From: Sinorhizobium meliloti
GTDB lineage: Bacteria; Pseudomonadota; Alphaproteobacteria; Rhizobiales; Rhizobiaceae
NCBI RefSeq assembly: GCF_017876815.1
Contig: NZ_JAGIOS010000003.1
Coordinates: 360,001 to 392,000, forward strand
Length of the DNA stretch: 32,000 bases
Direction: 5' to 3'
Shown: positions 12,630 through 30,843 of the stretch, in pieces
How positions within the stretch are numbered: position 1 is the stretch's first letter
Layout: each line of letters starts with the position of its first letter
Notes under the pieces: model-generated
The model's database searches: none
Told to the model about the DNA's origin: nothing
Seen by the model: only the letters and a program-made list of their open reading frames with translations
Translations under genes and position numbers: made by a program

Positions 12630-12645
12630 CGCACTAACCAGTTAC
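12630..12645 (-). promoter_or_regulatory. island operator copy A: GTAACTGGTTAGTGCG (read on the minus strand)
   Basis: Lies just downstream of a sigma70-like promoter: CTTGAC 12600..12605, then ATATAC about 17 nt later. It is 54 nt upstream of the VOC start. 15/16 identical to copy B. Confidence 0.55.
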
Positions 12646-12698
12646 ATATTTAACTGCGGTGTAGCTGTTGTTCCGAGCGATGACCGGGGAGGGGATCG

Positions 12699-13213
12699 AT
12701 GAGAGTTTTCGGCATGCAGCATATCGGCTTCACCGTGCCGCATCTGGAGGAGGCGGTTCGATTCTTCGAAGCTGCCTTCGGTGCCGTGACGTGTTTGGAG
12801 ACCGGACGCATCGAAGCCGACGACGCCTTCATGCAGAGAAGGCTCGGCGTGCCAGCCGGCTGCAGGATCGAGAACATAAAGGTTCTTCGAATTGGCAACG
12901 GCACCAATCTCGAACTTTTTCAATACTCGGGCGAGGAAGACGGCGAAGAGCCATTGAAGCGCAATAGTCAATCCGGCGGCTTTCACCTGGCGTTTGAGGT
13001 GGATGACTGCCACTCGGCCGCGGATCGGCTGCGGCAGGCGGGCGTCGACGTGCTGGAGGGGCCGACTTTCGTGGATGCCGGAGCGATGCAGGGTCTCACC
13101 TTTACCTGCGTGCGCCGTGGGGGCAGTTCCTCGAGCTCGTAAGCATGAACGGTGCGCTGGGCTATGAGCGGGCCGGTGGGCCGAAACAGTGGTCCCCGGT
13201 AACCGGAGAGTGA
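12699..13213 (+). pseudogene. VOC (glyoxalase/bleomycin-resistance/dioxygenase) family gene with an apparent 1-nt frameshift near codon 136
   Basis: The annotated ORF 12699..13142 ends ...GLTFTCVRRGGSSSSS*. From 13106 the adjacent frame reads LRAPWGQFLELVSMNGALGYERAGGPKQWSPVTGE* (stop 13211..13213). That is the expected conserved VOC C-terminus (compare ..SPWG.QLELVS...G.AYE, recalled from memory). Confidence 0.75.
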
Positions 13214-13260
13214 TTTCATCACCGATCGCAAGAAGGCCGTCGCCACGGAAAGGAGTGCGC

Positions 13261-14277
13261 TTGCCCCACGAGATAACGATCCCTGCAAAGCAGACGTTCC
13301 GACTCGACCGGTATGTGGACTTGCCGCTAAACTCCGGCGAAATCCGTGGGCGGACGGTTTGTACTTTGGTCAGCCCCGGAACCGAACTCGGCTGGGCGAA
13401 TGGCGATGTTTTTCCGATTCGGCCCGGCTATTCTGCCGTCTTCGAGGTGGAAGAGGTGGCGGACGGCGTGGATGGTATTCGGCCCGGTGAATTGCGTTTC
13501 GCGATGGGCATGCACCGAAGCACTCAGACGCATACGGCGCGGGACACGGTTCCATTGCCGGCCGGCTTGAGGCCCGAGATCGCCGTTCTCTCACGCCTCA
13601 TGGGCGTGTCGCTCACGAGCCTCATGACGACCAAGGCCCGGCCTGGCGATCACGTCGTTATCACTGGAGCCGGCCCGGTCGGTCTTCTCGCGGCGCAGCT
13701 CTTCAAGATTTCCGGTTACCGCGTGACCGTCGTCGATCCGGATCCTCTGAGAAGGGCGCAGCTCGCCAGTTGCGGCATCTCCGATTGCCGCGAGCGTGTC
13801 CCGCTTCAGTCGTCGCTTCAGGGGCAGGTCGCGCTCGTTCTCGATTGTTCCGGCCATGAAGGGGCCGTGCTCGACGCATGCCGCATCGTTCGCCGCCTGG
13901 GCGAGGTCGTCCTGGTCGGCGTTCCATGGCGCAAGCTGACCGAGATCTCCGCGCATGAGCTTCTGAACGCGGTTTTCTTCAATCTCGTGACCTTGCGGTC
14001 GGGCTGGGAATGGGAATTGCCGGTTCATGCCCGTGCATTCGAGTGGGAGGAACTGCTGGGCGGTTACAATAACGCGCGCCACAGCGTCTTCGGAGGGTTT
14101 GCCCGGGCGCTCGACTGGCTGGCAGAGGGAAGAATCGAACTCGGCGGACTGCTGCGCCGTGTTCCTCCGACCGATCCTGCCTCTCTCTACGCAGACATTG
14201 CCGCAAGACGTATCGAGGAACCGTTCATCGTCCTTGATTGGACCGATTTCGACGGACCCGACCTGAAGTCGTCGTGA
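13261..14277 (+). CDS. medium-chain dehydrogenase/reductase-like oxidoreductase lacking the classical zinc ligands
   Basis: ORF 13189..14277. Preferred start is TTG 13261, with aaaggag 5 nt upstream. Rossmann motif ITGAGPVGLLAAQ. VSPGTELG occupies the place of the usual Cys/His zinc motif, as in the BchC-like Zn-free MDR subgroup. Confidence 0.8.
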   Translation: MPHEITIPAKQTFRLDRYVDLPLNSGEIRGRTVCTLVSPGTELGWANGDVFPIRPGYSAVFEVEEVADGVDGIRPGELRFAMGMHRSTQTHTARDTVPLPAGLRPEIAVLSRLMGVSLTSLMTTKARPGDHVVITGAGPVGLLAAQLFKISGYRVTVVDPDPLRRAQLASCGISDCRERVPLQSSLQGQVALVLDCSGHEGAVLDACRIVRRLGEVVLVGVPWRKLTEISAHELLNAVFFNLVTLRSGWEWELPVHARAFEWEELLGGYNNARHSVFGGFARALDWLAEGRIELGGLLRRVPPTDPASLYADIAARRIEEPFIVLDWTDFDGPDLKSS

Positions 14278-14278
14278 T

Positions 14279-14938
14279 CTAAGCGCAAACCATGCGCATG
14301 ATGGTCTCTATGTTGAATTGAACGCGCTCTTCGAGCGCGTCTTTCGCCATCAGGTCACGCTCGAAAACGATCGAACCGGTGAAGCGGTTGGTGATGTAGT
14401 AATAGCCGATGGCCGCGATGGTGAGGTTCAGTTGGACCGGGTCGATTCCCGGCCGGAAAACCCCTTCGGAAACGCCCCGCTCCAGCAGTTCCTTGACCAT
14501 GCCGACGAATTTTCGACTGGTTGCACGGACCACCTGGGACTTCTTCAAGTGCTTGGCGCGATGAAGGTTCTCGCTGTTGACCAGCGTTATGAACTCCGGG
14601 TGCTTCAGATAGTATTCCCAGGTGAAACGTACGAGCTTCTCGAGGGCAGCCTTGGGTTCAAGGTCATTGAGGTTGAGCTTTTGTTCCGCGGTCCGTATCC
14701 CGTTATAGGCGTCTTCGAGAACGGTCTGGAAGAGGTGGTCCTTGCCGTCGAAGTAGTGGTAAATCATCCGCTTGTTGGCGTTTGCCTTCTCGGCGATCAC
14801 GTCCACCCTGGCGCCCCCCAATCCGTTTTTCGCGAATTCTTTCTTCGCGGCCTCGAGGATGCGCGCCTTGGTTGCTTCGGCATCGCGTAGCCGTGGCTTC
14901 CCGGCTGCTTTCGCTTTCTGTGCACTCGTCGTTCTCAA
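14279..14938 (-). CDS. TetR/AcrR family transcriptional regulator
   Basis: 219 aa with a TTG start. N-terminal HTH is ILEAAKKEFAKNGLGGARVDVIAEKANANKRMIYHYF. Its stop codon is 1 nt from the stop of the convergent MDR gene. Divergent from the sugar ABC operon. Confidence 0.9.
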   Translation of the reverse strand: MRTTSAQKAKAAGKPRLRDAEATKARILEAAKKEFAKNGLGGARVDVIAEKANANKRMIYHYFDGKDHLFQTVLEDAYNGIRTAEQKLNLNDLEPKAALEKLVRFTWEYYLKHPEFITLVNSENLHRAKHLKKSQVVRATSRKFVGMVKELLERGVSEGVFRPGIDPVQLNLTIAAIGYYYITNRFTGSIVFERDLMAKDALEERVQFNIETIMRMVCA

Positions 14939-15075
14939 GGTCTGACCTTCACGCGTTCATGGCTTGTGTTGTCCGACTCATACACGCCTGCCGGTATAGC
15001 CGTCAAAGCCGCCTGCCGAGATGGTCGGCTTGATGAAAATATATGAAAACCCTTGACTCATGCAACACTAAACAA

Positions 15076-15091
15076 GTAACTAGTTAGTGCG
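15076..15091 (+). promoter_or_regulatory. island operator copy B: GTAACTAGTTAGTGCG (contains the palindrome TAACTAGTTA)
   Basis: Located in the tetR / ABC divergent intergenic region. It starts 17 nt after CTTGACT (15052..15058), so it overlaps the -10 position. Confidence 0.55.
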
Positions 15092-15193: not shown

Positions 15194-16306
15194 ATGTCGA
15201 CATTCATCAAGAACTTCATCGAGCGTGAGACGATCAGCCGTCGTCACTTTCTGCTTGCCTCGGCCGCAGGTCTGGGGGCAGCGGTCCTGCCAAACCCGTT
15301 TGGCGGCGGCGCGCGCGCTGCATTGACGGATCCCGCGATCGCCTGGAGCTATCGCGACCGCGCTTCGGCCTATTGGAACTCGGTCGTCTCCGGCGGCGAA
15401 GCATTCGTCGAATCGCTCGGCAAGCCGAAGAGCGCGCTCGTAAGTCTGATCAACGAAGGATCATCCGAGAAATCTCTGGCCGACATCAAGGCCTTCCTTG
15501 CCAAGAACAATGGAAATTGCGCCCTGGCCTGCGATGCCAATGACAGCCCGAATGCGCGGCCGATCGTGGAGGCGGTGGCGGCTGCGGGCGGCTACATCTC
15601 CACGATCTGGAACAAGACCGATGATCTCCATCCATGGGATTTCGGCGACAACTACGTGTCGCACATGACCTGGTCGGACGAGAAGCCCGCCGAAGAGACC
15701 GCGCGCATCCTGTTCGAAGCCATGGGCGGCGAGGGCGGTGTCGTCCACCTGGGCGGCATTGCCGCCAACAACCCTGCGGTCGAGCGGCTCAACGGTCTGA
15801 AGAATGCGCTGAAGGACTTTCCCAACATCGAACTGCTCGACGCGCAGCCGGCGGACTGGGACACGCAGAAGGGCGCGGCTTTGATGTCATCCTTCCTGAC
15901 CCGCTATGGCGACAGGATCAAGGGCGTGCATTGCGCCAACGACAACATCGCCTACGGCGTCATCGAGGCGCTGCGCGCCGAAGGCATCGAGGGCATGCCG
16001 ATCGTGTCCTATGACGGCAATCCCGAAGCGGTGCAGATGGTCATGGACGGCCAGCTGCTCGCGACGGTCTTCACCAATCCGCACTGGGGCGGTGGCATCA
16101 CGTCGGCGCTCGCCTACCATGCGGCAACCGGCAGCTTCAAGCCGTCGGAAGAGCCGAAAGAACATCGCGAGTTCTACGGACCGACCGTCCTGGTCAGCAA
16201 GAAGGATGCCGAGGAGTTCAAGGCCAAATATCTGGATTCGGTACCGAAATACGATTGGGCCGACTTCTGGGGTCCCTCGAACGGACAAATTCAGTATCGG
16301 TCCTGA
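15194..16306 (+). CDS. sugar/polyol ABC transporter substrate-binding protein with a twin-arginine signal
   Basis: ORF 15101..16306. Preferred start is ATG 15194 (MSTFIKNFIERETISRRHFLLASAAGLGAAVLP), with gggagga 6 nt upstream. Periplasmic-binding-protein type I (ribose/LacI-like) body. ATG 15188 is an alternative start. Confidence 0.9.
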   Translation: MSTFIKNFIERETISRRHFLLASAAGLGAAVLPNPFGGGARAALTDPAIAWSYRDRASAYWNSVVSGGEAFVESLGKPKSALVSLINEGSSEKSLADIKAFLAKNNGNCALACDANDSPNARPIVEAVAAAGGYISTIWNKTDDLHPWDFGDNYVSHMTWSDEKPAEETARILFEAMGGEGGVVHLGGIAANNPAVERLNGLKNALKDFPNIELLDAQPADWDTQKGAALMSSFLTRYGDRIKGVHCANDNIAYGVIEALRAEGIEGMPIVSYDGNPEAVQMVMDGQLLATVFTNPHWGGGITSALAYHAATGSFKPSEEPKEHREFYGPTVLVSKKDAEEFKAKYLDSVPKYDWADFWGPSNGQIQYRS

Positions 16307-16380
16307 CCCTCTTTCCGGGGACGGCGCACAGCTGACCGTCCCCGATATTCCTATCCGAGACCCTGCGAAAGGTGCCCATC

Positions 16381-17346
16381 GTGACCCGGCCCATATCGCG
16401 CGAGACCCTGATCAAATGGGCGCCCCTTCTGGTGCTCATCGCGCTTGTGATCTTCTTTACGGTTTTAAACCCGACATTCTTCTCGGCCCGCAACTTCGCG
16501 CGCATCGCCATCGCATCCGCCCCCGCCTTGATGGTGGCCGTGGGCGTGACTTTCATCATCATCATGGGCTCGATCGACCTTTCCATGGAAGGTGTCATCT
16601 CGCTTACGGCCGTGCTCTTCTCCTTTGCCTTCATAAAGCTCGGCGGCACCTTGCTGGGCACGGCGTGGCTCGCCCTTCCGCTGATCCTGATCATAGGCGG
16701 GCTCATAGGCTTCCTGAACGGCCTGGTCCACGTCAAACTGCGGGTACCCTCGTTCATGGCGAGCCTCGCGATGGGCTTCGTCGGAACCGGCGCGGCAATT
16801 CTGATCACCGGCGGCGACATAGTGAGGGTCAGCGATCCGGCGTTCCGTGGCCTCTTGACCGTCAGATGGCTTGGCTTCCCGCTCATGGTGTACGTGGCCG
16901 CCGTATTCCTGATCGTGGCCTGGTTCATCCAGGAGCACACGAGGCTCGGCCGCAACTTCTATGCGGTCGGCGGCGGAGAAGAGCTGGCGCATGCCTCGGG
17001 CCTCGACGTCAGCCGCGTGCGGATCGCCGGCTTTGCGCTTGCAGGCGTGTTTTACGCGATCGCGGCAGTCCTCGTCGTCGCACGCATCGGTCAAGCGGAG
17101 TCGGTGACGGGTTCCAATTTCATGTTCGTATCGATCACCTCCGTCGTCGTCGGCGGAGTGGCTCTGTGGGGCGGCATCGGCGGCGTGTGGAATGCGCTGA
17201 TAGGCGTCCTGATCGTCGGCGTCATCAACAACGGCATGGTGGTCATCGGTCTGCCGGATTTCCTTCAGGACGGAGTTCTGGGCCTCCTCGTCATCCTTGC
17301 CGTCGTGCTGTCGACCGATCGCAAGCTGGTCTCTTTCGTGAAGTGA
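16381..17346 (+). CDS. monosaccharide-type ABC transporter permease 1
   Basis: ORF 16372..17346. GTG 16381 has better spacing from gaaagg than GTG 16372. Highly hydrophobic RbsC/BPD_transp_2-like sequence. Confidence 0.9.
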   Translation: MTRPISRETLIKWAPLLVLIALVIFFTVLNPTFFSARNFARIAIASAPALMVAVGVTFIIIMGSIDLSMEGVISLTAVLFSFAFIKLGGTLLGTAWLALPLILIIGGLIGFLNGLVHVKLRVPSFMASLAMGFVGTGAAILITGGDIVRVSDPAFRGLLTVRWLGFPLMVYVAAVFLIVAWFIQEHTRLGRNFYAVGGGEELAHASGLDVSRVRIAGFALAGVFYAIAAVLVVARIGQAESVTGSNFMFVSITSVVVGGVALWGGIGGVWNALIGVLIVGVINNGMVVIGLPDFLQDGVLGLLVILAVVLSTDRKLVSFVK

Positions 17347-17356
17347 GGGTGAGGAC

Positions 17357-18868
17357 ATGTACGAGCTGAAGTCCCTCGACAAGAAGTTTCCCGGCGTTCA
17401 TGCGCTCAAGGCGATCGACTTCCATATCAAGCGCGGCGAGATCGTCGGGCTGGTGGGAGAGAACGGCGCGGGAAAATCCACCCTGATGAAGGTGATCTAT
17501 GGCGCCTACCAGCCCGATGGCGGGCAGATCCTCATCAACGGCGATGCCGTGCGCTTCGCGAACCCCCGCCAGGCGATGGAAAAGGGGATCGGGATGGTGT
17601 TTCAGGAGCAGTCCCTGATCCCGAACCTGACGGTGATGGAGAACATTTTTCTCGGCTACGAGCAGCAGTTCGTCCGCCTCGGCGTCATCAACTGGAAGGA
17701 GATGGCCAAGGCCGCGAAAGCACAGCTTGCGAAGGTCAAGCTGGACATCGATCCTTCGACGGTCACATCGAAACTGTCCTTCGCTCAGCGTCAGCTGGTC
17801 GAACTCGCCAAGGTCCTCACACTCGAAGAGCGGGTCGACGGCGATCTCGTCATCCTCCTCGACGAGCCCACCTCGGTTCTGTCGAAGGACGAAGTCGAGC
17901 TTCTGTTCAAGCTCGTGCGCGAGCTCGTGACCCGTGCCTCCTTCATATTCGTCTCGCACCGAATGGACGAAGTCATGGAGCTGTCGGATCGGATCTACGT
18001 GATGAAGGACGGACAGGTGGTCGACGTCGTCGAGCGGGGCGGGGGCGGAGCCGATGCCGAATCGATCCAGCACAAGATGGTCGGGCGGAACGTCGACAAG
18101 CAATATTATCGGGAGCAGCTTCAAAAGCCCTACGATCCCTCGAGAGTCCTCGTCGAAATGTCCGGCATCGACCTGCCGGGCCGCACGAAGGATATCTCGC
18201 TCAGGCTTCACGCCGGTGAGGTCCTGTGCCTCGTCGGAACCGAAGGCTCGGGCCGTGAAGCGATCCTGCGCGCAATCTACGGCATGCTCAGCCCCACCGG
18301 CGGACGCCTGAAGATCAAGGGACGGGAGGTGAGGACATATTCGCCGCGTCAATCGGTCGGCCTCGGTGTCGGATATGTTCCGCGCGAGCGCAAGATCGAG
18401 GGCATCGTGGCGGGCATGAATGTCTACGAGAACATGACCCTCTCGCAGTTGAAGAAGCATTCGACGGCGAGCGTTCTGCAGGTCGGAAAGGAGCGCGCGC
18501 TCGCGCGGGAGTGGATCAGGAAGCTCTCCATCAAGGCCCATTCCGAGCTCGCCGACTGCGGCAACCTTTCAGGCGGCAACCAGCAGAAGGTCGTTCTCGC
18601 CAAATGGCGCTCCGCGGGCGCCGATATCATGCTCCTCGATCACCCGACGCGCGGTCTCGACATCGGGGCGAAGGAGGACGTCTACGAAATGATCCGCGCC
18701 ATGAGCGATGCGGGCGTCGGGATCGTCCTGGTGGCCGACACGCTCGAGGAAGCGATCGGACTCTCCCATACGATCGTCGTCGTCAAGGATGGCAGGATCC
18801 AGAAACGGTTCGATTGCGTGCCTGGCGCGAAGCCCTCCCTGTATGACCTCCTGCATTACATGATCTGA
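17357..18868 (+). CDS. sugar ABC transporter ATP-binding protein (two fused ABC domains)
   Basis: 503 aa. Walker A GENGAGKST, signature LSFAQRQ, and second-domain signature LSGGNQQK. RbsA/MglA-like architecture. Confidence 0.95.
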   Translation: MYELKSLDKKFPGVHALKAIDFHIKRGEIVGLVGENGAGKSTLMKVIYGAYQPDGGQILINGDAVRFANPRQAMEKGIGMVFQEQSLIPNLTVMENIFLGYEQQFVRLGVINWKEMAKAAKAQLAKVKLDIDPSTVTSKLSFAQRQLVELAKVLTLEERVDGDLVILLDEPTSVLSKDEVELLFKLVRELVTRASFIFVSHRMDEVMELSDRIYVMKDGQVVDVVERGGGGADAESIQHKMVGRNVDKQYYREQLQKPYDPSRVLVEMSGIDLPGRTKDISLRLHAGEVLCLVGTEGSGREAILRAIYGMLSPTGGRLKIKGREVRTYSPRQSVGLGVGYVPRERKIEGIVAGMNVYENMTLSQLKKHSTASVLQVGKERALAREWIRKLSIKAHSELADCGNLSGGNQQKVVLAKWRSAGADIMLLDHPTRGLDIGAKEDVYEMIRAMSDAGVGIVLVADTLEEAIGLSHTIVVVKDGRIQKRFDCVPGAKPSLYDLLHYMI

Positions 18869-18875
18869 GGATAAG

Positions 18876-19817
18876 ATGGACATACAACGCCTCAAACCGC
18901 ACCTGCCCTGGATCACGCTCACGGTGCTCGTCGCCATCGTCGGCATGGCCGATCCCGGCTTTCTCAAGCCGCAAAACCTCATGAGCCTCGCAGGCGACAT
19001 CGTGCCGCTCTTCATCATGGCGCTCGGCCTGACCTTCGCCATCTATATCGGAGGCATCGACCTGTCGGCCCAGTCCATGGCCAACATGGTGACCGTGATT
19101 GCCTCGGTCTACCTTGCATCGATGGGAGCCTGGGTGGCCCTTCTCTGCGTGGCCGCGGGTTTCCTGCTGGGCACCTTGTCGGGCTACATCACCACGAGGC
19201 TTTACGTTCCGTCCTTCATTTCCACTCTTGCCGTAGGCGGCGTCGCTTTTTCGGTCGCACAGTGGCTGTCCGGCCAGCGCGCGCTGAACATGGACGCGGC
19301 GCAACGCAACGAGACCTTCGGCTGGATGATCGGCCGGACATGGGGGGTCCCGAACGAACTCCTCATCGCGGCAGTGCTCCTCCTCGTCTGCCTCTTCATC
19401 GAGCGCCGGACCATTCTCGGACGGGCGCTGAAGGCCGTCGGCGCAGGCGAGCTCGCCGCCGCCGCATCGGGTTTGAACGTGGCCCGCTACAAGATACTGG
19501 CCTTTGCGATTTCCGGTGCGCTTGCGGCGATTGCCGGCCTCCTGTTCGCAGTCAAGCTGTCGGGCGGAGCGCCGACGATCGCCAACGGTTTCCTGCTGCC
19601 GGCTATCGTCGCCGTTCTCGTTGGCGGAACTCCGCTGACGGGCGGCGTGGGTGGGGTCCTCAACACGGTTATCGGCACCCTGATCGTGGCGGTCATTCGC
19701 GCCTCGATGCTCTATTTCGAGATCGATGCGACACAACAGCAGATGGTCTTCGGCATCGTCCTCATCGGCGCCATCGCCTTGACGATCGACCGGGCCAAGC
19801 TCAGGACCGTGAAGTAG
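18876..19817 (+). CDS. monosaccharide-type ABC transporter permease 2
   Basis: 313 aa. Hydrophobic RbsC-like sequence. RBS gagga. Confidence 0.9.
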   Translation: MDIQRLKPHLPWITLTVLVAIVGMADPGFLKPQNLMSLAGDIVPLFIMALGLTFAIYIGGIDLSAQSMANMVTVIASVYLASMGAWVALLCVAAGFLLGTLSGYITTRLYVPSFISTLAVGGVAFSVAQWLSGQRALNMDAAQRNETFGWMIGRTWGVPNELLIAAVLLLVCLFIERRTILGRALKAVGAGELAAAASGLNVARYKILAFAISGALAAIAGLLFAVKLSGGAPTIANGFLLPAIVAVLVGGTPLTGGVGGVLNTVIGTLIVAVIRASMLYFEIDATQQQMVFGIVLIGAIALTIDRAKLRTVK

Positions 19818-19826
19818 GAGAGAAGG

Positions 19827-20861: not shown

Positions 20862-20862
20862 T

Positions 20863-20916
20863 GCGGGATGAGGAAGTGTCTGCGCGGTTTTCCGCCGCAT
20901 CCCGCTCCAGTTTTTT
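20863..20916 (+). terminator. rho-independent-like terminator after the Zn-ADH gene
   Basis: GCGGGATG (20863..20870) pairs with CATCCCGC (20898..20905), with an inner GCGG-tttt-CCGC element. A TTTTTT run follows at 20911..20916. Confidence 0.5.
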
Positions 20917-20988
20917 GAATCGATTACGGCCATGACTTCAGGTCGACCGGACCTAAAGCCATCGTGGTCGAGTGCGCAGCTAACAGCA

Positions 20989-21004: not shown

Positions 21005-21023
21005 TAGAATAGGGAGGCACCCG

Positions 21024-22520: not shown

Positions 22521-24115
22521 TGATGGAAGGTTTTGATTACGTCATCGTCGGCGGCGGATCGTCGGGCTGCGTTCTGGCCGCCCGCCTTTCCGAGAACCCT
22601 TCGGTGCGCGTCTGCCTGATCGAGGCGGGCGGGCGCGACCGTCACCCGTTGATCCACATGCCGGTCGGCTTCGCAAAGATGACCGCGGGGCCGATGACCT
22701 GGGGCCTGACGACCGCCCCGCAGAAACATGCAAACAACCGCGAGATTCCCTATGCCCAGGCGAGAGTGCTCGGCGGAGGGTCCTCGATCAATGCCGAGGT
22801 CTATACGCGCGGCCACCCGCGGGACTATGACCGCTGGGTGGAAGAGGGGGCCGACGGATGGAGCTTTCAGGAGGTGAAGCCTTACTTCCTGCGATCCGAG
22901 GGCAATACGATCCTCTCCGGCGAGTGGCACGGGACGGACGGTCCTCTCGGAGTCTCCAACCTTCCCGATCCGCAGCCGATGACACGGGCTTTCGTCCAGA
23001 GCTGCCAGGAACTCGGCATCCCCTATAATCCCGACTTCAACGGGCCGGTCCAGGAAGGTGCGGGGGTCTACCAGACGACGATCCGCAACAGCCGCCGTTG
23101 CTCGGCCGCTGTCGGATATTTGCGGCCGGCGCTCGCGCGCAAGAACCTCATGCTCATCACGGGTGCGCTTGTCCTGCGCATCGTATTCCAGGGCCGCCGC
23201 GCCGTCGGCGTCGAATACTCGACCGGGGGCGCCGCGAAGATCGCCCGGGCGGAAAGCGAGGTTCTCGTCACCTCGGGTGCGATCGGAACGCCTAAGCTCA
23301 TGATGCTTTCAGGCGTCGGCCCGGCCGCCTCTCTGCGGAGCCACGGTATCGACGTCGTGCAGGATATGGCGGGGGTCGGCCAGAACCTCCACGATCACTT
23401 CGGCGTGGACATCGTTGCCGAACTGAAGGGGCATGACAGCCTCGACAAGTACAACAAGTTCCACTGGATGCTCTTGGCGGGAATCGAATACGCGCTTTTC
23501 AAATCCGGGCCGGTCGCCTCGAATGTTGTGGAGGGTGGAGCCTTCTGGTACGGCGATAGGGCAAGCCCCTATCCCGACCTGCAATTCCACTTTCTTGCGG
23601 GGGCGGGAGCCGAGGCCGGGGTGCCGAGCGTCCCAAAGGGTTCCTCCGGCGTGACCTTGAATTCCTACACGGTCCGGCCGAAGTCACGGGGTTCCGTCAC
23701 CCTTCGTTCTGCCGACCCCCGTGCCCTGCCGATCGTCGACCCGAACTTCCTCGATGATCCGGATGATCTCAGGATCTCGGTCGAAGGCATCAGGATCAGC
23801 AGGGAAATTTTCGGGCAGCCGTCGCTGCAGAAGTACATCAAGACGATCCGCTTCCCCGACGAGAGCGTCAGGACACAGGCCGACTTCGAGGCCTATGCGC
23901 GGCAATACGGGCGGACGTCCTATCACCCGACATGCACCTGCAAGATGGGTCGCGACGATATGTCGGTGGTCGATCCGCAGCTCCGCGTCCACGGCCTTGA
24001 CGGCATCCGCATCTGCGACAGTTCGGTGATGCCCAGTCTCGTGGGCTCCAATACCAATGCGGCTACCATCATGATCGGCGAGAAGGCGGCCGATCTGATA
24101 CGGGGCAACATTTGA
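22520..24115 (+). CDS. GMC family FAD oxidoreductase (choline / alcohol dehydrogenase-like)
   Basis: ORF 22223..24115. Preferred start is ATG 22520 (MMEGFDYVIVGGGSSGCVLAARLSE), overlapping the ALDH TGA by 1 nt. It has the N-terminal FAD fold and C-terminal GMC region (HPTCTCKMG, VCDSSVMP-like RICDSSVMP). Confidence 0.95.
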   Translation: MMEGFDYVIVGGGSSGCVLAARLSENPSVRVCLIEAGGRDRHPLIHMPVGFAKMTAGPMTWGLTTAPQKHANNREIPYAQARVLGGGSSINAEVYTRGHPRDYDRWVEEGADGWSFQEVKPYFLRSEGNTILSGEWHGTDGPLGVSNLPDPQPMTRAFVQSCQELGIPYNPDFNGPVQEGAGVYQTTIRNSRRCSAAVGYLRPALARKNLMLITGALVLRIVFQGRRAVGVEYSTGGAAKIARAESEVLVTSGAIGTPKLMMLSGVGPAASLRSHGIDVVQDMAGVGQNLHDHFGVDIVAELKGHDSLDKYNKFHWMLLAGIEYALFKSGPVASNVVEGGAFWYGDRASPYPDLQFHFLAGAGAEAGVPSVPKGSSGVTLNSYTVRPKSRGSVTLRSADPRALPIVDPNFLDDPDDLRISVEGIRISREIFGQPSLQKYIKTIRFPDESVRTQADFEAYARQYGRTSYHPTCTCKMGRDDMSVVDPQLRVHGLDGIRICDSSVMPSLVGSNTNAATIMIGEKAADLIRGNI

Positions 24116-24322: not shown

Positions 24323-24342
24323 GGGTCAAAGGAGTTCAGCCG

Positions 24343-25014: not shown

Positions 25015-25836
25015 CTACCGGTCCCAATCCGGAACCCAGGGCAACATCCCGGCTTTCAGAATCCGATAGTTTGTCGCGTTCATCGCATCGATCCGCTTCA
25101 TGTCGTGCGGCGAAAGCGCAAAATCCAATATCTCGAAATTCGCCCGGATATTCTCCGGCTTGGTGGACATGGTATTCATGGACACGCCCTTCTGAAGAAT
25201 CCAGCGAAGCACCGTCTGGGCAGCCGTCTTGCCGTATCTTGCGCCGATCTCGGCGAAGACCGGATGCTTGAACACCTCGCCCCTGGCAACCGAACAGTAG
25301 GATGACAGCGCAATCTTCGTTTCCTCGGCTGCGTCGAGAAGCCGGCTCTGGTCGATGAGCGGGTGGAATTCGACCTGGTTGGTCACCAGCGGCGCCTCTA
25401 CGATCGATTGTGCTTCGCGCATCATCGGGGCCGTGTAATTGGAGACGCCGATGTTGCGGGCGAGACCGATGTCGAATGCCTTCTGTAGCAGCCGCAGGGA
25501 TCGCGCGTTCTCACCATTGATCTCCGGCCAATGCAGCATCAGGACATCGGCCTGATCGACCCGCAAGGCCTTCAGGCTCGCCTCGACCGAAGGCAGGAAT
25601 GCTTCTTCGGAATAATTATCGGGGTGCACTTTCGTGGTGATGCATAGCTCGTCACGAGCCAGGCCGCTTTCGGCAAGCGCTTCCCCCGTCTCGGCCTCGT
25701 TGCCGTACATCTGTGCGGTGTCGAAGGCGCGGTACCCGACCGTGATGGCCTCGCGAACGGCAGCCTTCAACGGCTCGCCCTTCAGTGGGTAGGTGCCGAA
25801 GCCTCTCTGATAGCTCTTCTCGAAATAGACGCTCAT
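25015..25836 (-). CDS. aldo/keto reductase (2,5-diketo-D-gluconate reductase-like)
   Basis: ORF 25015..25848. Preferred start is ATG 25836, just after GGGAGG. Motifs FDTAQMYGNE, MLHWP and IGVSNY. Confidence 0.9.
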   Translation of the reverse strand: MSVYFEKSYQRGFGTYPLKGEPLKAAVREAITVGYRAFDTAQMYGNEAETGEALAESGLARDELCITTKVHPDNYSEEAFLPSVEASLKALRVDQADVLMLHWPEINGENARSLRLLQKAFDIGLARNIGVSNYTAPMMREAQSIVEAPLVTNQVEFHPLIDQSRLLDAAEETKIALSSYCSVARGEVFKHPVFAEIGARYGKTAAQTVLRWILQKGVSMNTMSTKPENIRANFEILDFALSPHDMKRIDAMNATNYRILKAGMLPWVPDWDR

Positions 25837-25917
25837 CGGTCCTCCCATTGGTTAGCCATTAAAACGGGAGCTGAGGAAAAATGCCCCCTTGCCTCTACCG
25901 TTCATCATGCTTAAGCT

Positions 25918-25933
25918 ATATCTGGTTAGTTAC
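25918..25933 (+). promoter_or_regulatory. island operator copy D: ATATCTGGTTAGTTAC
   Basis: Located in the divergent intergenic region between the AKR (minus) and CoA-transferase (plus) genes, 28 nt upstream of ATG 25961. It overlaps a CTATAT hexamer (25916..25921). Confidence 0.5.
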
Positions 25934-25960
25934 TTACGCAACAAGAAAAGGAGCCTTGGC

Positions 25961-27532
25961 ATGGCAAAAGTGATGACCGCAAACGAGGCCGCCGGGCTGG
26001 TCAGGGACGGGGCGGTGCTGGCGGTCAATTCGTCGTCCGGCCTGGGTTGTCCCGATGAGGTTCTGAAGGCGCTCGGAGAGCGGTTCGAGTTGGAGGGACA
26101 TCCGCGCGGACTGACGTCGGTTCATCCCATCGCCGCCGGAGATTTCTTCGGGACGAAGGGTGTCGATCACATCGCCAGACGAGGCATGCTCAAGAAGATC
26201 ATCGGCGGTTCGTATCCTTCCGGTCCGAGCAATGCCGAGCCGCCGCTCATCTGGCAGATGATCCTGAAGGAAGAGGTGGCCGCCTGGAACGTGCCCTCTG
26301 GCATCGTCTTCGACATGCTGAGGGAAGGTGCGGCGAAACGCCCCGGCGTGCTGACCAAGGTCGGCATCGACACCTTCGTCGATCCCGAACAGGAAGGCTG
26401 CGCCATGAACGCCGCAGCGCGGAGCGAGCCGATCGTCAGGCGCGTGCGCTTTGCCGACGACGACTGGCTGCACTTTCCGCCCATTCAGCCCGATGTCGCG
26501 ATCATCCGGGCGACGACCGCCGACGAGAGAGGCAACCTGACCTTCGAGCACGAGGGTGCGACGCTCGGCGCGATGGAGATGGCGCTTGCGGCGCGCAATT
26601 CCGGCGGGATCGTCATCGCCCAGGTGAAGAGGGTCGCGGCCGAGGGAACGATGCGTCCTCACGATGTGCGCGTTCCGGGGATACTCGTCGACGTCATCGT
26701 CGAAGCGCCCGATCAATTGCAGACGACTGCGACCCCGTACGATCCTGCGATATCCGGGGAATTGTTCCGCCCGCTTCATACGTTCCGCACGCCGGCGCTG
26801 GACCCCGGCAAGGTGATCGCCCGCCGTGTGGCGCAGGAACTCAAGGCCGGCTGGGCGGTCAATATCGGGTTCGGTATTTCGGCAAACGTTCCGCGCGTGC
26901 TGATAGAGGAAGGGCATCACGGCAAGATCACCTGGGTGATCGAGCAGGGCGCAGTGGGCGGCGTGCCGCTGCTCGATTTCAAGTTCGGCTGTGCCTCCAA
27001 CGCCGAGGCCTTCGTAGCCTCGCCGCATCAGTTCTGCTATTTCCAGGCGGGCGGGTTCGACTGCTCTTTGCTTTCTTTTCTTGAAATCGACGCCGAAGGT
27101 TCGGTGAATGTCAGCCGTCTCGCAGCGACACCCCACCGCACGGCCGGCGCGGGCGGTTTCGTCGACATTACTGCGCGCGCAAGGAAGATCGTTTTCTCGG
27201 GCAATTTCAACGCGGGCGCGAAAATGCGTATCGAGGACGGGCGGCTCGTCATCGACAAGGAAGGACGAATTGCGAAGATCGTCCCGAAAGTCGATCAGGT
27301 CAGTTTTTCCGGCAGGCGCGCACGCGTTCAAGGTCAGGATGTCACCTATGTGACCGAACGCTGCGTGATGAAGCTCGAGCCCGACGGGCTCGTCGTCAGC
27401 GAGGTTGCCCCCGGATTGGACCTGAGACGGGACGTTCTCGATCAGGCAGCGACGCCCCTGCGGGTAGCCGACGGCCTCAAGGAGATGGACCAGGCCCTGT
27501 TTCTTTCAACTGCGATGGGGCTAGGCCTGTGA
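25961..27532 (+). CDS. acyl-CoA:acetate/3-ketoacid CoA-transferase, fused alpha/beta (YdiF-like, family I)
   Basis: ORF 25889..27532. Preferred start is ATG 25961 (MAKVMTANEAAGLV), preceded by aaaggag. About 520 aa single-chain family I architecture, with the EQGAVGG region where the catalytic Glu motif is expected. Confidence 0.85.
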   Translation: MAKVMTANEAAGLVRDGAVLAVNSSSGLGCPDEVLKALGERFELEGHPRGLTSVHPIAAGDFFGTKGVDHIARRGMLKKIIGGSYPSGPSNAEPPLIWQMILKEEVAAWNVPSGIVFDMLREGAAKRPGVLTKVGIDTFVDPEQEGCAMNAAARSEPIVRRVRFADDDWLHFPPIQPDVAIIRATTADERGNLTFEHEGATLGAMEMALAARNSGGIVIAQVKRVAAEGTMRPHDVRVPGILVDVIVEAPDQLQTTATPYDPAISGELFRPLHTFRTPALDPGKVIARRVAQELKAGWAVNIGFGISANVPRVLIEEGHHGKITWVIEQGAVGGVPLLDFKFGCASNAEAFVASPHQFCYFQAGGFDCSLLSFLEIDAEGSVNVSRLAATPHRTAGAGGFVDITARARKIVFSGNFNAGAKMRIEDGRLVIDKEGRIAKIVPKVDQVSFSGRRARVQGQDVTYVTERCVMKLEPDGLVVSEVAPGLDLRRDVLDQAATPLRVADGLKEMDQALFLSTAMGLGL

Positions 27533-28299
27533 GCGAGCCGGTTCGACTGAAAATCGGGGAAGGTGTCGCCTGGCTGACGATCAGCCGGCCGGATAAGCTG
27601 AACGCGCTTGACGGCGAAATGGTCGATGCAATCGTCCCGGCCTGTCGTGAAATCGAGCGTTCCGCGGCGAAGGTGGCGATACTGACCGGTGAGGGGGAGC
27701 GTTCGTTCTGCGCCGGCGGCGACATCGATGCCTGGAGCAATGCTTCGCCCGAGGCCTTCGGCCGCCATTGGGTGCGTGATGGCCATGCGGCCTTCGATGC
27801 TCTGGCCCGGCTCGCGGTTCCGCTGATCGCGGTGTTGAACGGGCACACATTAGGGGGCGGGCTCGAGCTCGCCGCCTGCGCCGATCTCCGGATCGCCGAG
27901 GCGCACGTCAGGATAGGGCAGCCGGAGACGGGGCTCGGAATAATTCCCGGCTGGTCCGGAACGCAGCGCGCGGTGCGAAGGTTCGGTCCGCAGCTCGTCC
28001 GGCGCATGGCGCTCTTCGGACATGTCTATGGCGCTGAGGAGGCGCTCGCTCTGGGATTGGTGGATCAGGTGGTCGCAACGGGCGAGGGGCGCGCCGCGGC
28101 GGAAATTGCAGCGGCAGGCGTAATGAAGCGATCGGCGCGCGCGACCGAACTTACGAAGATGCTCATCAACGCGGCCGAGGGAGAGGAAAGCGAGCGGGTC
28201 GTCGAAGCCTTGGCGGGTGCCGTCGCCGCCGCGTCCGACGAGCTGCAGGAAGGCTTGTCGGCCTTCCGTGAGAGGCGGCCGGCGCGGTTCGGTCAATGA
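27529..28299 (+). CDS. enoyl-CoA hydratase/isomerase (crotonase) family protein
   Basis: 256 aa. GTG start overlaps the upstream stop as GTGA. Crotonase motifs SFCAGGDI and NGHTLGGGLELAACADLRIA. Confidence 0.9.
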   Translation: MSEPVRLKIGEGVAWLTISRPDKLNALDGEMVDAIVPACREIERSAAKVAILTGEGERSFCAGGDIDAWSNASPEAFGRHWVRDGHAAFDALARLAVPLIAVLNGHTLGGGLELAACADLRIAEAHVRIGQPETGLGIIPGWSGTQRAVRRFGPQLVRRMALFGHVYGAEEALALGLVDQVVATGEGRAAAEIAAAGVMKRSARATELTKMLINAAEGEESERVVEALAGAVAAASDELQEGLSAFRERRPARFGQ

Positions 28300-28311
28300 A
28301 CTGGAGTTTTC

Positions 28312-29571
28312 ATGTCGCCTGAAGATCGGGACTTTCTTTCGGAATTGTTCGAAGCGGCCGTGGGGGCGGCAGACCCGAAGCTTGCGCTTCGCGCGCGATT
28401 GCCGCAGCGCCCGCGCGGGCGCACTGTCGTCGTTGGGGCGGGCAAGGGCGCGGCCCAGCTGGCGGCGGCATTCGAGAGCCTGTGGGGCGGCCCGCTCGAA
28501 GGCGTCGTCGTCACCCGCTACGGCTACGCCGTTCACTGCGATCGGATACGAGTGATCGAGGCGGCACACCCGGTTCCCGACTGCAACGGACTGATCGCCT
28601 CGCACGCGCTGTTCGAAGCCGTTCGGGGTCTGACGCCGGATGACCTCGTCGTCGCTCTTTTCTGCGGAGGAGGCTCGGCCCTGCTGCCTTGCCCGCCCGA
28701 GGAACTCGCACTCGAAGATGAAATCGCCCTGAACAGGGCACTGCTCGCAAGCGGCGCACCGATTTCCGTGATGAACGCGATTCGCAAGCAGGTCTCCCGC
28801 ATAAAGGGTGGGCGGCTCGCCGCCGCCTGCCATCCGGCGAAAGTGATAAGCTTCATCGTTTCCGACGTCCCGGGCGACGACCCGGCACAGGTCGCCTCGG
28901 GACCCACCATTCCCGACGCGACGGACCGAGCTGCTGCCCGCGCAATGAGGGATGCCTGGCGAATCGAACTGCCCGAGAGGCTGGTCGATTGGCTGAAGGG
29001 CGAGAACGGGACGGCTCCGTCGCCGAACGATCCCGTCTTTGCGGGGCACGAGGTCCAGGTTATCGCCTCGGCGCGGCTTTCGTTGGAGGCTGCCGCGGCT
29101 CGGGCCGATGCACTGGGAATTCCTGCCATCATCCTGTCGGACGCGATCGAAGGGGAGGCGCGCGACGTCGGCAAAGTCCACGCCGCAATCGCGCGCGAAG
29201 TGGTTTTGCGCAACCGCCCCTTCGAGCGTCCCGTGGTTCTGCTGTCGGGCGGTGAAACGACGGTGACGCTTCGCGGGCATGGAAGGGGAGGGCGCAATAC
29301 CGAGTTCCTCCTTTCGCTTGCAATCGCAGCCGAAGGCCTGTCCTTCGCCTCACTGGCGGCAGACACCGACGGTATCGACGGTTCGGAGAGCAATGCGGGA
29401 GCGTTTGCGGACGGAAGCAGCGCCACGCGCTTGCGCGCACTCGGCAGAGATCCGGTCGCATTGCTCTCGGGCAACGACGCCTGGACTGCTTTCAATTGCC
29501 TCGAAGATCTGTTCGTGCCCGGGCCCACAGGTACCAATGTGAATGACTTCAGGGCGATTCTGGTCCGGTGA
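28312..29571 (+). CDS. glycerate 2-kinase / hydroxypyruvate-reductase-like protein (DUF4147 + MOFRL, TtuD family)
   Basis: 419 aa. Motifs VVGAGKGAAQLA, IRKQVSRIKGG, LLSGGETTVTL, GGRNTEF and TDGIDG are typical of the class II glycerate kinase/TtuD family. Confidence 0.85.
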   Translation: MSPEDRDFLSELFEAAVGAADPKLALRARLPQRPRGRTVVVGAGKGAAQLAAAFESLWGGPLEGVVVTRYGYAVHCDRIRVIEAAHPVPDCNGLIASHALFEAVRGLTPDDLVVALFCGGGSALLPCPPEELALEDEIALNRALLASGAPISVMNAIRKQVSRIKGGRLAAACHPAKVISFIVSDVPGDDPAQVASGPTIPDATDRAAARAMRDAWRIELPERLVDWLKGENGTAPSPNDPVFAGHEVQVIASARLSLEAAAARADALGIPAIILSDAIEGEARDVGKVHAAIAREVVLRNRPFERPVVLLSGGETTVTLRGHGRGGRNTEFLLSLAIAAEGLSFASLAADTDGIDGSESNAGAFADGSSATRLRALGRDPVALLSGNDAWTAFNCLEDLFVPGPTGTNVNDFRAILVR

Positions 29572-29621
29572 AAGGCGGCTAACCTTCTCTCCCGGCAGTG
29601 GATGCGGGCACCCTCTTCAAA

Positions 29622-29653
29622 CGTCTTCCTCGGGCCAAAGCCCGAGAAAGACG
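29622..29653. terminator. bidirectional terminator-like hairpin in the convergent gap
   Basis: CGTCTTCCTCGGGC, loop CAAA, GCCCGAGAAAGACG (13 of 14 positions paired). It lies between the glycerate kinase stop and the AKR stop. Confidence 0.5.
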
Positions 29654-29685
29654 ATCGGAGAGGGCGCAATCTCTCTTGAGTCGCC

Positions 29686-30702
29686 TCACGCGGGGATCGG
29701 AGCATCCTCGCGCAGGAGCCCCTTGGACTTGAGTTCCGTCCAGAACCCAGCCGGAATCGGGTGGCTGAACCAGGAAAGGTTCTGGCGCAGCTGTTCGATC
29801 GTCCGTGTGCCAGCCATGAAGGAGGGAACGGCCGGGTGCGCGACCACGAATTGGAGTGCGGCTGCCCCAAGGGGCACATCATGTGTCCTGCACACCGCCT
29901 CGATTCGCGCCACCTTCTCCAATATGGCCTTCGGCGCCGGTGCGTAATTGTATTTCGCTCCTTCCCTCGCCCCCGTTGCCAGGATCCCTGAGTTGAAGCC
30001 GCCGCCGACGACCACGGCTGCGCCTCGCTCTTCACAAAGAGGCAGGAATTCCTCGAGTGCGTCCTGTTCGAGAAGCGTATAGCGCCCAGCAAGCAGGAAA
30101 CAGTCGAAATCCCGCTGCTTCAACGCCTCGTGACACACCTCCCATTCGTTGACACCGACCCCGATCGCCTTGACCAGGCCTTCCGACCGGAGTTTCTCGA
30201 GCGCCCGCCAGGTCCCGTCCATGGCCTGGCCGAATACTTCGGGCTGCTCGCTTCCCCGCGTGAAAACGTCGATGTCGTGGATGAAGCAGATATCCATCCG
30301 TTCCAGGCCCAGCCTCTGCAGGCTGTCTTCGAAGGAGCGCATCGTGCCGTCATAGCTGTAGTCGAAGCGCATGCTGAAGGGCGCGGCGTTCACCCAGGGG
30401 GCGAAGTCGATCGTCGATCGCTTGGCGGGCGTCAGCAATCGGCCGACCTTCGATGAAAGCACGTATTCGTCCCGATCCCTCCAGCGCAGGCCCTGGCCGG
30501 TACGAAGTTCGGCCAGGCCATGCCCGTACATGGGCGCGGTATCGAAGAAGCGCACGCCCGCATCCCAGGCGAGCTCAAACATGGATTGCGACGTCTCTTC
30601 GTCGATTTCACGGAAGATGTTGCCGAGCGGCGCAGTCCCGAACCCGAATGCGGTGACGTCGAGGTCCACGCGGCCGAACTTCCGTTTCTCTCCCGGATGC
30701 AT
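29686..30702 (-). CDS. aldo/keto reductase (D-threo-aldose / L-fucose 1-dehydrogenase-like)
   Basis: ORF 29686..30708. Preferred start is ATG 30702, with GAGGAG 8 nt upstream. Motifs FGFGTAPLGN, FDTAPMYGHG and FIHD. Confidence 0.9.
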   Translation of the reverse strand: MHPGEKRKFGRVDLDVTAFGFGTAPLGNIFREIDEETSQSMFELAWDAGVRFFDTAPMYGHGLAELRTGQGLRWRDRDEYVLSSKVGRLLTPAKRSTIDFAPWVNAAPFSMRFDYSYDGTMRSFEDSLQRLGLERMDICFIHDIDVFTRGSEQPEVFGQAMDGTWRALEKLRSEGLVKAIGVGVNEWEVCHEALKQRDFDCFLLAGRYTLLEQDALEEFLPLCEERGAAVVVGGGFNSGILATGAREGAKYNYAPAPKAILEKVARIEAVCRTHDVPLGAAALQFVVAHPAVPSFMAGTRTIEQLRQNLSWFSHPIPAGFWTELKSKGLLREDAPIPA

Positions 30703-30722
30703 TCGCAAATCTCCTCATGTAA

Positions 30723-30738
30723 GTAACTGGATGGTGCA
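30723..30738 (+). promoter_or_regulatory. island operator copy E1: GTAACTGGATGGTGCA
   Basis: Located 6 nt beyond the RBS of the minus-strand AKR gene. The first 10 nt are identical to copy E2. Confidence 0.45.
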
Positions 30739-30827
30739 CAATACGCGCGGCGACGGCCAGTGCGCAAGCCTCGTCGTGGTGCGATCGGCGATTTTCCGGC
30801 TTGACCGTCTGCCGCATGCCGATGTAT

Positions 30828-30843
30828 GTAACTGGATAGTTAC
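30828..30843 (+). promoter_or_regulatory. island operator copy E2: GTAACTGGATAGTTAC (perfect GTAACT / AGTTAC inverted repeat)
   Basis: Overlaps the -10 of TTGACC (30801..30806)-N18-TATGTA (30825..30830). It ends 18 nt before the acyl-CoA dehydrogenase ATG. Confidence 0.55.

Follow-up and report, generated by a model that had tools for sequence, protein, structure and literature searches.

A conserved dyad motif at five promoter regions of Sinorhizobium meliloti pSymA points to a multi-operator regulon of the TetR-family protein SMa1428

A 32-kb stretch of the Sinorhizobium meliloti megaplasmid pSymA, referred to below at its full length as the window, carries six copies of a 16-bp dyad of the type GTAACT-N4-AGTTAC in five promoter regions, together with the gene of a TetR-family regulator, SMa1428. 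The six sites are very probably the operators of SMa1428, which would block transcription initiation at these promoters until released by an inducer, whereupon five transcription units would switch on together. The original prediction, made from the letters of the window alone, had proposed that one TetR repressor and one operator motif join the five promoter regions, and the proposal is supported by the joint travel of the motif with the TetR gene and its gene set across taxa, by phylogenetic footprinting and by the positions of the sites at promoters. Judged from these sequence comparisons, the motif appears to be a real and apparently undescribed operator of an uncharacterized TetR protein; as suspected at the outset, no account of the motif, of SMa1428 or of its targets was found in the searchable literature, in which supplements are not indexed and which does not include the curated regulon databases. 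The window corresponds to the SMa1431-SMa1400 region of pSymA, is 99.5-99.9% identical to strains SM11, 2011 and 1021, and aligns in reverse to coordinates 769,736-801,732 of strain 1021. The locus tags of its genes and the mapped transcription start sites (TSSs) used below were taken from the supplements to Schlueter et al. 2013 (PMC3616915).

Results

Six intergenic copies of one motif

All six 16-mers proposed from the sequence are present letter for letter at the positions listed here, where class I sites have a GTTAC right arm and a good dyad, and class II sites a GTGCr right arm.

Site A, 12630..12645, minus strand: GTAACTGGTTAGTGCG as read on that strand; class II; upstream of the genes for a vicinal oxygen chelate (VOC) protein and a medium-chain dehydrogenase/reductase (MDR)-type dehydrogenase.
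Site B, 15076..15091, plus strand: GTAACTAGTTAGTGCG; class II; on the predicted promoter of the ABC-transporter operon.
Site C, 20989..21004, plus strand: ATATCCGTTTAGTTAC; weak or half-degenerate; in the 5' leader of the aldehyde dehydrogenase (ALDH)-GMC oxidoreductase unit.
Site D, 25918..25933, plus strand: ATATCTGGTTAGTTAC; class I; in the divergent region between a first aldo-keto reductase (AKR1) and a CoA-transferase.
Site E1, 30723..30738, plus strand: GTAACTGGATGGTGCA; class II; in the divergent region between a second aldo-keto reductase (AKR2) and an acyl-CoA dehydrogenase (ACAD).
Site E2, 30828..30843, plus strand: GTAACTGGATAGTTAC; perfect class I dyad; on the ACAD-operon side of the same region.

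The relationships first noted by eye among these copies hold. Sites A and B agree at 15/16 positions and C and D at 14/16, and E2 is a perfect GTAACT-N4-AGTTAC. The hexamer GTAACT/AGTTAC is restricted to the sites, with 7 occurrences in the window, all of them inside the six copies (E2 holds two). The first 12.5 kb is devoid of sites, and from 12.5 kb to the right edge each multi-gene unit except the ParDE pair has one. Taken alone, the hexamer count is only mildly unusual: dinucleotide shuffles of the window contain a mean of 2.1 copies and reach at least 7 in 2 of 100 cases, and the density is 0.22 per kb in the window versus 0.08 per kb in 400 kb of other pSymA sequence. The observation is counted as strong because of the intergenic placement of the sites, the gap in matrix score and the conservation across taxa. 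Indeed, all six copies are intergenic, as had been claimed, in a window of which 8.0% is intergenic (composition-adjusted P ~2e-6; GC content in the window, intergenic 57% versus 63%).

A scan with a matrix built from the six 16-mers, one of the checks suggested with the original prediction, scores the sites at 21-26 bits and the next best position in the window at 13 bits. In the 400 kb of pSymA scanned outside the window the best score is 15.0 bits, or 16.7 bits with a cross-taxon matrix. When each site in turn is left out of the matrix, A, B, D and E2 still score 18-24 bits. A further matrix match, GGATCTGGTTCGTGCC at 31939-31954, was not accepted as a site, since it falls within a stretch of ACAD coding sequence, close to the 3' end of the gene, that is conserved in all taxa. 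This ACAD match scores 13-16 bits in every taxon and is a predictable false positive in genome scans.

Conservation at orthologous loci

Three loci that carry the whole cluster were used for phylogenetic footprinting: Sinorhizobium sp. C101 (95% identity), a plasmid of the unverified 'Roseateles' XES5 (78%) and Ensifer adhaerens (78%). In the aligned tetR/ABC, AKR1/CoA-transferase and AKR2/ACAD intergenic regions, the proposed operators and the CTTGAC -35 boxes form conserved islands in otherwise diverged DNA. A matrix derived from the S. meliloti sites alone gives high scores at the orthologous intergenic positions of all three relatives. None of the four taxa differs at any position of the site B 16-mer, which lies within a 27-bp conserved block, and site A has counterparts upstream of VOC/MDR-type units in the same three relatives. 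Beyond the ~21-bp motif, the flanks of the sites are unrelated to one another.

Linkage of the motif to the TetR gene

With the TetR protein as sole query, 80 loci were gathered from species-representative genomes (55-99% identity), spanning Rhizobiaceae, Phyllobacteriaceae, Brucellaceae, Rhodobacteraceae, Acetobacteraceae, Burkholderiaceae and several metagenome-assembled genomes (MAGs). In 56 of 79 loci the 350 bp that precede the TetR orthologue contain a match of at least 15 bits, versus 1.8% of 3,705 control segments. In those loci the motif stands approximately 100-250 bp upstream of the gene, and its orientation is uniform, reading yGCACyAwCyrGTTACtt towards tetR. The same signal emerges from a matrix-free count of 7-mers, in which AAGTAAC/GTTACTT is found in 45 of 68 non-redundant upstream regions versus 0.6% of controls, and 14 of the 15 commonest 7-mers are parts of the operator or of its conserved flanks. 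In the 56 loci the motif adjoins TetR whatever the adjacent gene, be it that of the substrate-binding protein (SBP), ALDH, ACAD, GMC or CoA-transferase.

The gene set that accompanies the TetR orthologue is also stable. Its constant neighbours encode ALDH, GMC, CoA-transferase, ACAD, a short-chain dehydrogenase/reductase (SDR), a dihydrodipicolinate synthase (DHDPS)-like protein, an isomerase-like protein and electron transfer flavoprotein (ETF); a CUT2 ABC transporter is usually present, and a glycerate-kinase-like protein, an enoyl-CoA hydratase (ECH) and AKRs often are. Across 1.58 Mb of these loci there are 146 matches, of which 138 lie outside labelled coding sequence and 8 in the conserved ACAD coding sequence; 132 of the 138 adjoin the start of a labelled cluster gene, and no labelled gene lies beside the other 6. 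In Paraburkholderia, Gluconobacter, Acetobacter, Paracoccus and one MAG, each cluster operon has its own site despite differing gene order. The joint travel of motif, TetR and gene set covers four bacterial families (Rhizobiaceae, Rhodobacteraceae, Acetobacteraceae and Burkholderiaceae) in two classes. As first noted for the window, the cluster contains no regulator gene other than TetR in either of the loci that were checked gene by gene (the window and XES5).

Positions of the sites relative to promoters

The published 5'-end mapping of strain 1021 (PMC3616915), transferred to window coordinates, provided the anchors for this comparison, and the promoters of the remaining units were predicted from the rhizobial consensus CTTGAC-N17/18-CTATAT. 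At E1 the overlap is with a mapped promoter. The SMa1403 (AKR2) promoter is of RpoD type and runs on the minus strand, with its -35 (CTTGCG) at 30763-30768, its -10 (GTATTG) at 30739-30744 and its TSS at 30732 (PMC3616915); E1 begins at the base directly following this -10 and spans -6..+10. At four other sites the overlap is with predicted elements. Site A comes straight after CTTGAC(12600-12605)-N17-AATATA. The left arm of site B would itself form the -10 of the ABC-operon promoter, CTTGAC(15052-15057)-N18-GTAACT. Site D overlaps a -10-like CTATAT (25916-25921), and E2 overlaps the end of the -10 in the ACAD-operon promoter, CTTGAC(30800-30805)-N18-GTATGT. The placement proposed for A, B and E2, on or directly after the -10 of TTGAC-type promoters, is thereby borne out against the predicted promoters, and D shares it. 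The broader statement that every copy sits at a promoter or ribosome-binding site stands for E1 at a mapped promoter and for A, B, D and E2 at predicted ones, but not for C, which is downstream of the start sites listed for SMa1415 (ALDH) at window positions 20970 (proximal) and 20915 (PMC3616915).

The TetR gene has a mapped promoter of its own:

Mapped tetR promoter, 14970..15007, minus strand: -35 TTTGAC (15002-15007), N18 spacer, -10 GTATGA (14978-14983), TSS at 14970 (PMC3616915).

Both hexamers of this promoter are conserved blocks in the four taxa. The earlier claim that the divergent tetR promoter carries copy B is right as to the shared intergenic region, but the site lies on the ABC promoter, 68 bp from the mapped tetR promoter. 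Autorepression of tetR by occlusion is not supported in S. meliloti, because site B does not overlap the mapped promoter, and tetR is probably transcribed constitutively from this separate promoter. In Paracoccus, Fuscovulum and a Rhodobacteraceae MAG, the tetR/SBP region contains two sites 47-57 bp apart (loci L032, L034, L035, L037 and L057, at ~9780-9900), and the second site, nearer tetR, might serve for autoregulation, which seems to be missing in S. meliloti.

In the operon table of the mapping study, which draws on pooled RNA from 16 conditions, the ABC, CoA-transferase and ACAD operons have no TSS entry (the zero counts being our reading of that table), while tetR, SMa1403 and SMa1415 do have TSSs (PMC3616915). 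Within the limits of that table, the pattern is consistent with a constitutive repressor, with tight repression behind B, D and E2 and with leakier control at E1 and C.

Two further features of the sites were observed. The spacing between E1 and E2 is 105-107 bp, approximately ten helical turns, in four Rhizobiaceae loci (the window; L011, 35508-35630; L012, 34509-34630; L013, 38049-38169); it could reflect cooperative binding or looping, or may merely result from back-to-back promoters. Site D shows a strain polymorphism at its position 4 (25921), the window strain having ATATCT where strain 1021, C101, XES5 and E. adhaerens have ATAACT. This operator position is A in 110 of 124 cross-taxon sites, and the change in the window strain yields a perfect rhizobial -10 (CTATAT).

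Anatomy of the operator

Across the 124 unique sites conservation extends over ~21 bp, from AA before the 16-mer to TtA after it, and can be written tAA-gTAACy-rGwT-rGTkmn-TtA. The operator can be described as a dyad of ~16-21 bp with the consensus tAA-gTAACy-rGwT-rGTTAc-TTa, with a recurrent variant in which the right arm GTTAC is replaced by GTGCr. Class I comprises D and E2 and, in other loci, perfect copies such as GTAACCATATGGTTAC; class II comprises A, B and E1. The tetR-proximal site belongs to class II in nearly all taxa, from Alpha- to Betaproteobacteria, with a constant orientation to tetR (L016-L089). Positions T2, A3, C5, T10, G12 and T13 are invariant. Self-complementarity reaches 5.0-5.5 of 10 at two dyad centres versus 1.3 off-register; the two centres, at 8|9 and at 6|7 (TAACT|AGTTA, a single 10-bp palindrome), score about equally, and neither register is favoured. 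One or two dimers may thus bind per site.

SMa1428 and its characterized relatives

SMa1428 has a TetR_N helix-turn-helix (HTH; PF00440, E 2.4e-12, residues 27-71) and a full-length C-terminal ligand-binding and dimerization domain, TetR_C_29 (PF17938, E 1e-42). Its nearest structure is 3npi, a TetR-family protein. The recognition helix KRMIYHYF is invariant in the 80 orthologues, matching the invariant TAAC/GT core of the motif. An AlphaFold2 model based on an alignment of 20 sequences was not used for a fold search, as its pLDDT averaged 62.9 and was below 50 in the HTH region. The defining features of the family that can be assessed from sequence are present: the HTH, the C-terminal domain, a dyad operator, a copy of that operator adjacent to the regulator gene, and promoter overlap (mapped at E1 only). 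Autoregulation is not supported by the geometry here, as the mapped tetR promoter is at least 68 bp from site B. Autoregulation is common in the TetR family but does not define it.

The nearest named relative of SMa1428 is Escherichia coli RutR, which provides its best NCBIfam match as well as the PDB matches 4x1e and 3loc. The RutR box, TTGACCAnnTGGTCAA (PMC2475637), and the motif described here, GTAACyAnnTrGTTAC, are both 16-bp 7-2-7 dyads, and the box shares xTxACCAnnTGGTxAx with the best palindromic copies of the motif (GTAACCATATGGTTAC). In both systems a single regulator has several operators and catabolic targets. The outer bases of the half-site differ, however, being GTAAC here and TTGAC in RutR (GTAACy versus TTGACC), and RutR has many intragenic sites (PMC2475637), in contrast with the strictly promoter-proximal sites of the window. 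Identification of SMa1428 as a RutR orthologue was rejected on scores of 57.9 bits for TIGR03613 (cutoff 368) and 47.3 for NF011584 (cutoff 230); the window contains no rut or car genes.

The betIBA system was considered in view of Gluconobacter and Paraburkholderia loci where the regulator gene is transcribed divergently from a pair of ALDH and GMC genes; BADH and BetA are the best NCBIfam matches of that pair. A BetI/betIBA regulon was likewise rejected, the ALDH scoring 458 against a BADH cutoff of 668.6 and the GMC protein 482 against a BetA cutoff of 732.1. No BetI-type domain was matched in SMa1428, the C-terminal domain of which is TetR_C_29, and the proposed regulon differs in its further members, which have no part in choline oxidation: CoA-transferase, ACAD, ECH, ETF, a sugar-type ABC transporter and a glycerate-kinase-like protein.

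In regulons of the kind governed by KstR and KstR2 in mycobacteria, FadR in Bacillus and Thermus, and PaaR, one repressor acts through a 14-20 bp dyad at each promoter of a clustered CoA-thioester pathway, and the effectors are often acyl-CoAs. The layout is like that proposed here, and SMa1428 has weak PDB and NCBIfam matches to these proteins at family level (E 1e-6 to 1e-12), but operator sequence, gene content and taxa differ. The Bacillus FadR/YsiA equivalog was rejected at 46.2 bits for NF053878 against a cutoff of 200. The QacR operator is bound by two dimers, and the ~21-bp conservation and two overlapping dyads of the present motif recall two-dimer operators of that type. TetR/tetO and QacR/IR1 also share with this system the TetR_N HTH and an operator over the -10/+1 region beside the regulator gene. 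They differ in that the targets here are catabolic rather than an efflux pump, that six operators are spread over 18 kb rather than confined to one intergenic region, and that the regulator's own promoter is without an operator.

Gene content of the regulon and the rest of the window

The gene calls of the original prediction (VOC, MDR, TetR, ABC, ADH, ALDH, GMC and ParDE, and likewise both AKRs, CoA-transferase, ECH, the glycerate-kinase-like protein and ACAD) agree with Pfam. The proposed repressor gene and regulon units are as follows, with locus tags from PMC3616915.

Regulon unit 1, 12699..14277, plus strand: VOC protein (glyoxalase fold) and MDR-type dehydrogenase, by Pfam; site A lies upstream.
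tetR, 14279..14938, minus strand: SMa1428, TetR_N and TetR_C_29 by Pfam; proposed repressor; an identical protein occurs on S. meliloti megaplasmids.
Regulon units 2 and 3, 15194..24115, plus strand: CUT2-type sugar ABC transporter (SMa1427, SMa1424, SMa1421 and SMa1418) and zinc-dependent alcohol dehydrogenase (Zn-ADH); ALDH (SMa1415) and GMC oxidoreductase (SMa1414); by Pfam and NCBIfam, with conserved synteny.
Regulon unit 4, 25015..29571: AKR1 on the minus strand, divergent from CoA-transferase (SMa1409), ECH (SMa1408) and the glycerate-2-kinase-like TtuD3 (SMa1406).
Regulon unit 5, 29686..32000: AKR2 (SMa1403) on the minus strand, divergent from ACAD (SMa1400).

Past the right edge of the window SMa1400 is followed by SMa1398 (SDR), SMa1397 (DHDPS-like), SMa1394 (xylose-isomerase-like) and etfB2A2 (PMC3616915). 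The proposed regulon runs beyond the window through SMa1398, SMa1397 and SMa1394, and etfB2A2 probably belongs to it as well.

A GC-rich inverted repeat followed by a T-run comes after the Zn-ADH stop codon (20862-20915), and a 5' end is mapped at 20915 (PMC3616915). The 162-bp spacer between the ADH and ALDH genes of S. meliloti is missing in XES5 and E. adhaerens, in which the two genes are contiguous; S. meliloti therefore seems to have split one ADH-ALDH operon into two. The ParD/ParE pair between GMC and AKR1 (24343-24949) occurs only in S. meliloti. On the XES5 plasmid GMC adjoins AKR1 and a ParDE pair sits after ETF-QO, and in some S. meliloti strains the GMC/AKR1 position holds an insertion-sequence transposase (DDE_Tnp_1); the spot looks like an insertion hotspot within the regulon. 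The MDR-type dehydrogenase downstream of VOC is 290 aa long in one S. meliloti assembly (L001, 10662-11534) and 338-340 aa in others (L002-L010), so the shorter call may be a truncation or a difference in start site. Positions 1-12526 of the window hold a separate, motif-free gene set that includes an AraC fragment, an SDR, a thiolase, an MFS transporter, a ferritin-like protein, a GntR regulator, a KdgD-like dehydratase and a peptide-type ABC transporter (SMa1440-1434).

Discussion

The mechanism proposed here is that each site is occupied by one or two SMa1428 dimers, which cover the -10 and start of a sigma-70-type promoter, or the DNA just beyond them, and block transcription initiation. 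A small-molecule inducer would bind the TetR_C_29 domain and free the operators; the candidates are the substrate that the transporter takes up and an intermediate of the pathway, possibly a CoA thioester. Five transcription units would then be turned on jointly: VOC-MDR; the sugar-type ABC transporter with Zn-ADH; ALDH-GMC; AKR1 with CoA-transferase-ECH-glycerate-kinase-like; and AKR2 with ACAD-SDR-DHDPS-like-isomerase-like-ETF. The regulatory logic, a TetR repressor with dyad operators over promoters, is conventional; what is new is the definition of an operator and a regulon for a widely distributed TetR protein.

Several observations weigh against this mechanism or narrow its basis. The genome scan was confined to ~30% of pSymA. 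Left out of the matrix, site C (12.8 bits) and E1 drop to ~13 bits, the level of the best background match, and these two sites therefore rely on outside evidence. The linkage between motif and TetR is partly built in, as the loci were gathered through TetR and every sampled cluster therefore contains it. Site B, at -106..-121 from the tetR TSS, lies 68 bp beyond the tetR -35 with no overlap. Site C is at +20..+35 and +75..+90 relative to the two mapped SMa1415 start sites. It is not conserved outside Sinorhizobium, its C101 copy being degenerate (15.7 bits), and it is absent from XES5 and E. adhaerens, where the ADH-ALDH gap is 24 bp; C is the weakest of the six sites. In the pooled-RNA table, ALDH and SMa1403 show TSSs despite carrying C and E1. 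The conserved GTGCr arm and the overlapping dyads, moreover, are not explained by one dimer on one palindrome. Finally, a scan of 12.5-31 kb for E. coli-type sigma-70 promoters and terminators found no promoter at any site and 2 matches elsewhere, fewer than in shuffled sequence. Four of the five promoter placements therefore rest on rhizobial-consensus reasoning; the scan itself was set aside as uninformative for rhizobial promoters, in favour of the conserved CTTGAC boxes and the published TSSs.

It might be argued that SMa1428 acts as an activator or dual regulator at some sites, or that C and the GTGCr sites are non-functional or low-affinity decoys, so that the regulon is smaller or rewired. 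The detectable TSSs of ALDH-GMC and SMa1403, the poor conservation of C and its position at +20..+35, and the preservation of a GTGCr arm that departs from the dyad would all fit such a view. Sites E1, A, B, D and E2, however, are placed on the -10/+1 region, a position suited to repression rather than activation; the operon table gives no TSS for those operons that have the best sites; and nearly all characterized TetR-family members are repressors. As an account of the system this alternative is unlikely, and it is plausible for C only, perhaps also for the class II sites. That another protein binds the motif while TetR uses a different operator is decidedly unlikely. Candidates would be a global regulator or the LysR-type SMa1387, which lies beyond etfA2; a LysR gene does flank the etf genes in strain 1021, LysR-family genes occur at the edges of the C101 stretch, T-N12-A dyads loosely resemble LysR boxes, and site B does not overlap the tetR promoter. 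Nevertheless, the XES5 cluster, the one locus checked for LysR, is without LysR or any other regulator. The motif adjoins TetR in 56 of 79 loci from two proteobacterial classes, whichever gene is its neighbour, and its 7-2-7 architecture is that of RutR, the nearest TetR relative.

It is very improbable that the motif is no protein operator at all, being instead an alternative sigma-factor element, a hairpin in the 5' leader RNA or a dispersed repeat. In support of this idea AGTTAC faces the downstream gene wherever the orientation can be judged, and several sites fall within a leader or at its beginning. With divergent transcription in three of the five regions, however, the orientation argument has almost no statistical power. 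The mapped promoters of SMa1403 and SMa1428 belong to the RpoD type and have -35 and -10 hexamers of their own that lie outside the motif. Class II sites lack self-complementarity, so that a hairpin is not conserved, and the unrelated flanks beyond ~21 bp argue against a repeat element. Chance clustering of an AT-rich hexamer in the AT-richer intergenic DNA has in its favour the 2 of 100 shuffles that reach seven hexamers and the lower intergenic GC content. It is barely credible, being refuted by the conserved positions at orthologous loci from Rhizobiaceae to Burkholderiaceae, and is further opposed by similarity that extends over 16-21 bp and by the intergenic P value.

The enzyme set offers some indication of what these units achieve. 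It resembles a pathway in which an alcohol is converted through an aldehyde and an acid to an acyl-CoA, with beta-oxidation-like steps then leading to glycerate. The gene content suggests that GMC, ALDH, Zn-ADH and the AKRs carry out the oxidations, that the CoA-transferase activates the product, and that an ACAD/ETF-ECH-SDR module precedes a glycerate 2-kinase-like step. The oxidative deoxyribonate pathway, which combines CoA intermediates with a glycerate kinase, was considered and dropped; its enzyme set differs, and no paper linking those terms was found in the searchable literature. We tentatively suggest that the operator may mark a regulon of over 20 genes that has spread horizontally, extending from Rhizobiaceae to Burkholderiaceae and Acetobacteraceae, possibly for an undescribed catabolic pathway of a transported polyol-like or alcohol substrate, with the TetR protein sensing that substrate or a CoA intermediate. 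In such a pathway the DHDPS-like and isomerase-like enzymes would act alongside the beta-oxidation-like module. In that event the operator would be a ready-made reporter for substrate discovery.

The analysis provides a testable regulatory map for ~24 kb of pSymA without assigned function (SMa1389-SMa1431), consisting of six sites, a single candidate repressor and one case of an operator that overlaps a mapped promoter. The combination of regulator, operator and enzymes is found again in soil bacteria, in plant-associated bacteria and in acetic-acid bacteria. An operator reporter or a deletion of SMa1428 could be used to screen for inducers and so reveal what the island degrades. No regulon protein reaches an NCBIfam equivalog cutoff, and PDB sequence searches with the SBP, DHDPS-like and GMC proteins returned only uncharacterized or generic entries; no substrate can therefore be assigned. 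The closest structure to the SBP (SMa1427), 2rjo, is a structural-genomics entry, and that to the 382-aa DHDPS-family protein (the SMa1397 orthologue at L011, 37580-38728) is 4dnh (E 4.6e-141), deposited as 'Uncharacterized protein'. Ligands bound in 4dnh or 2rjo, if any, could hint at the substrate.

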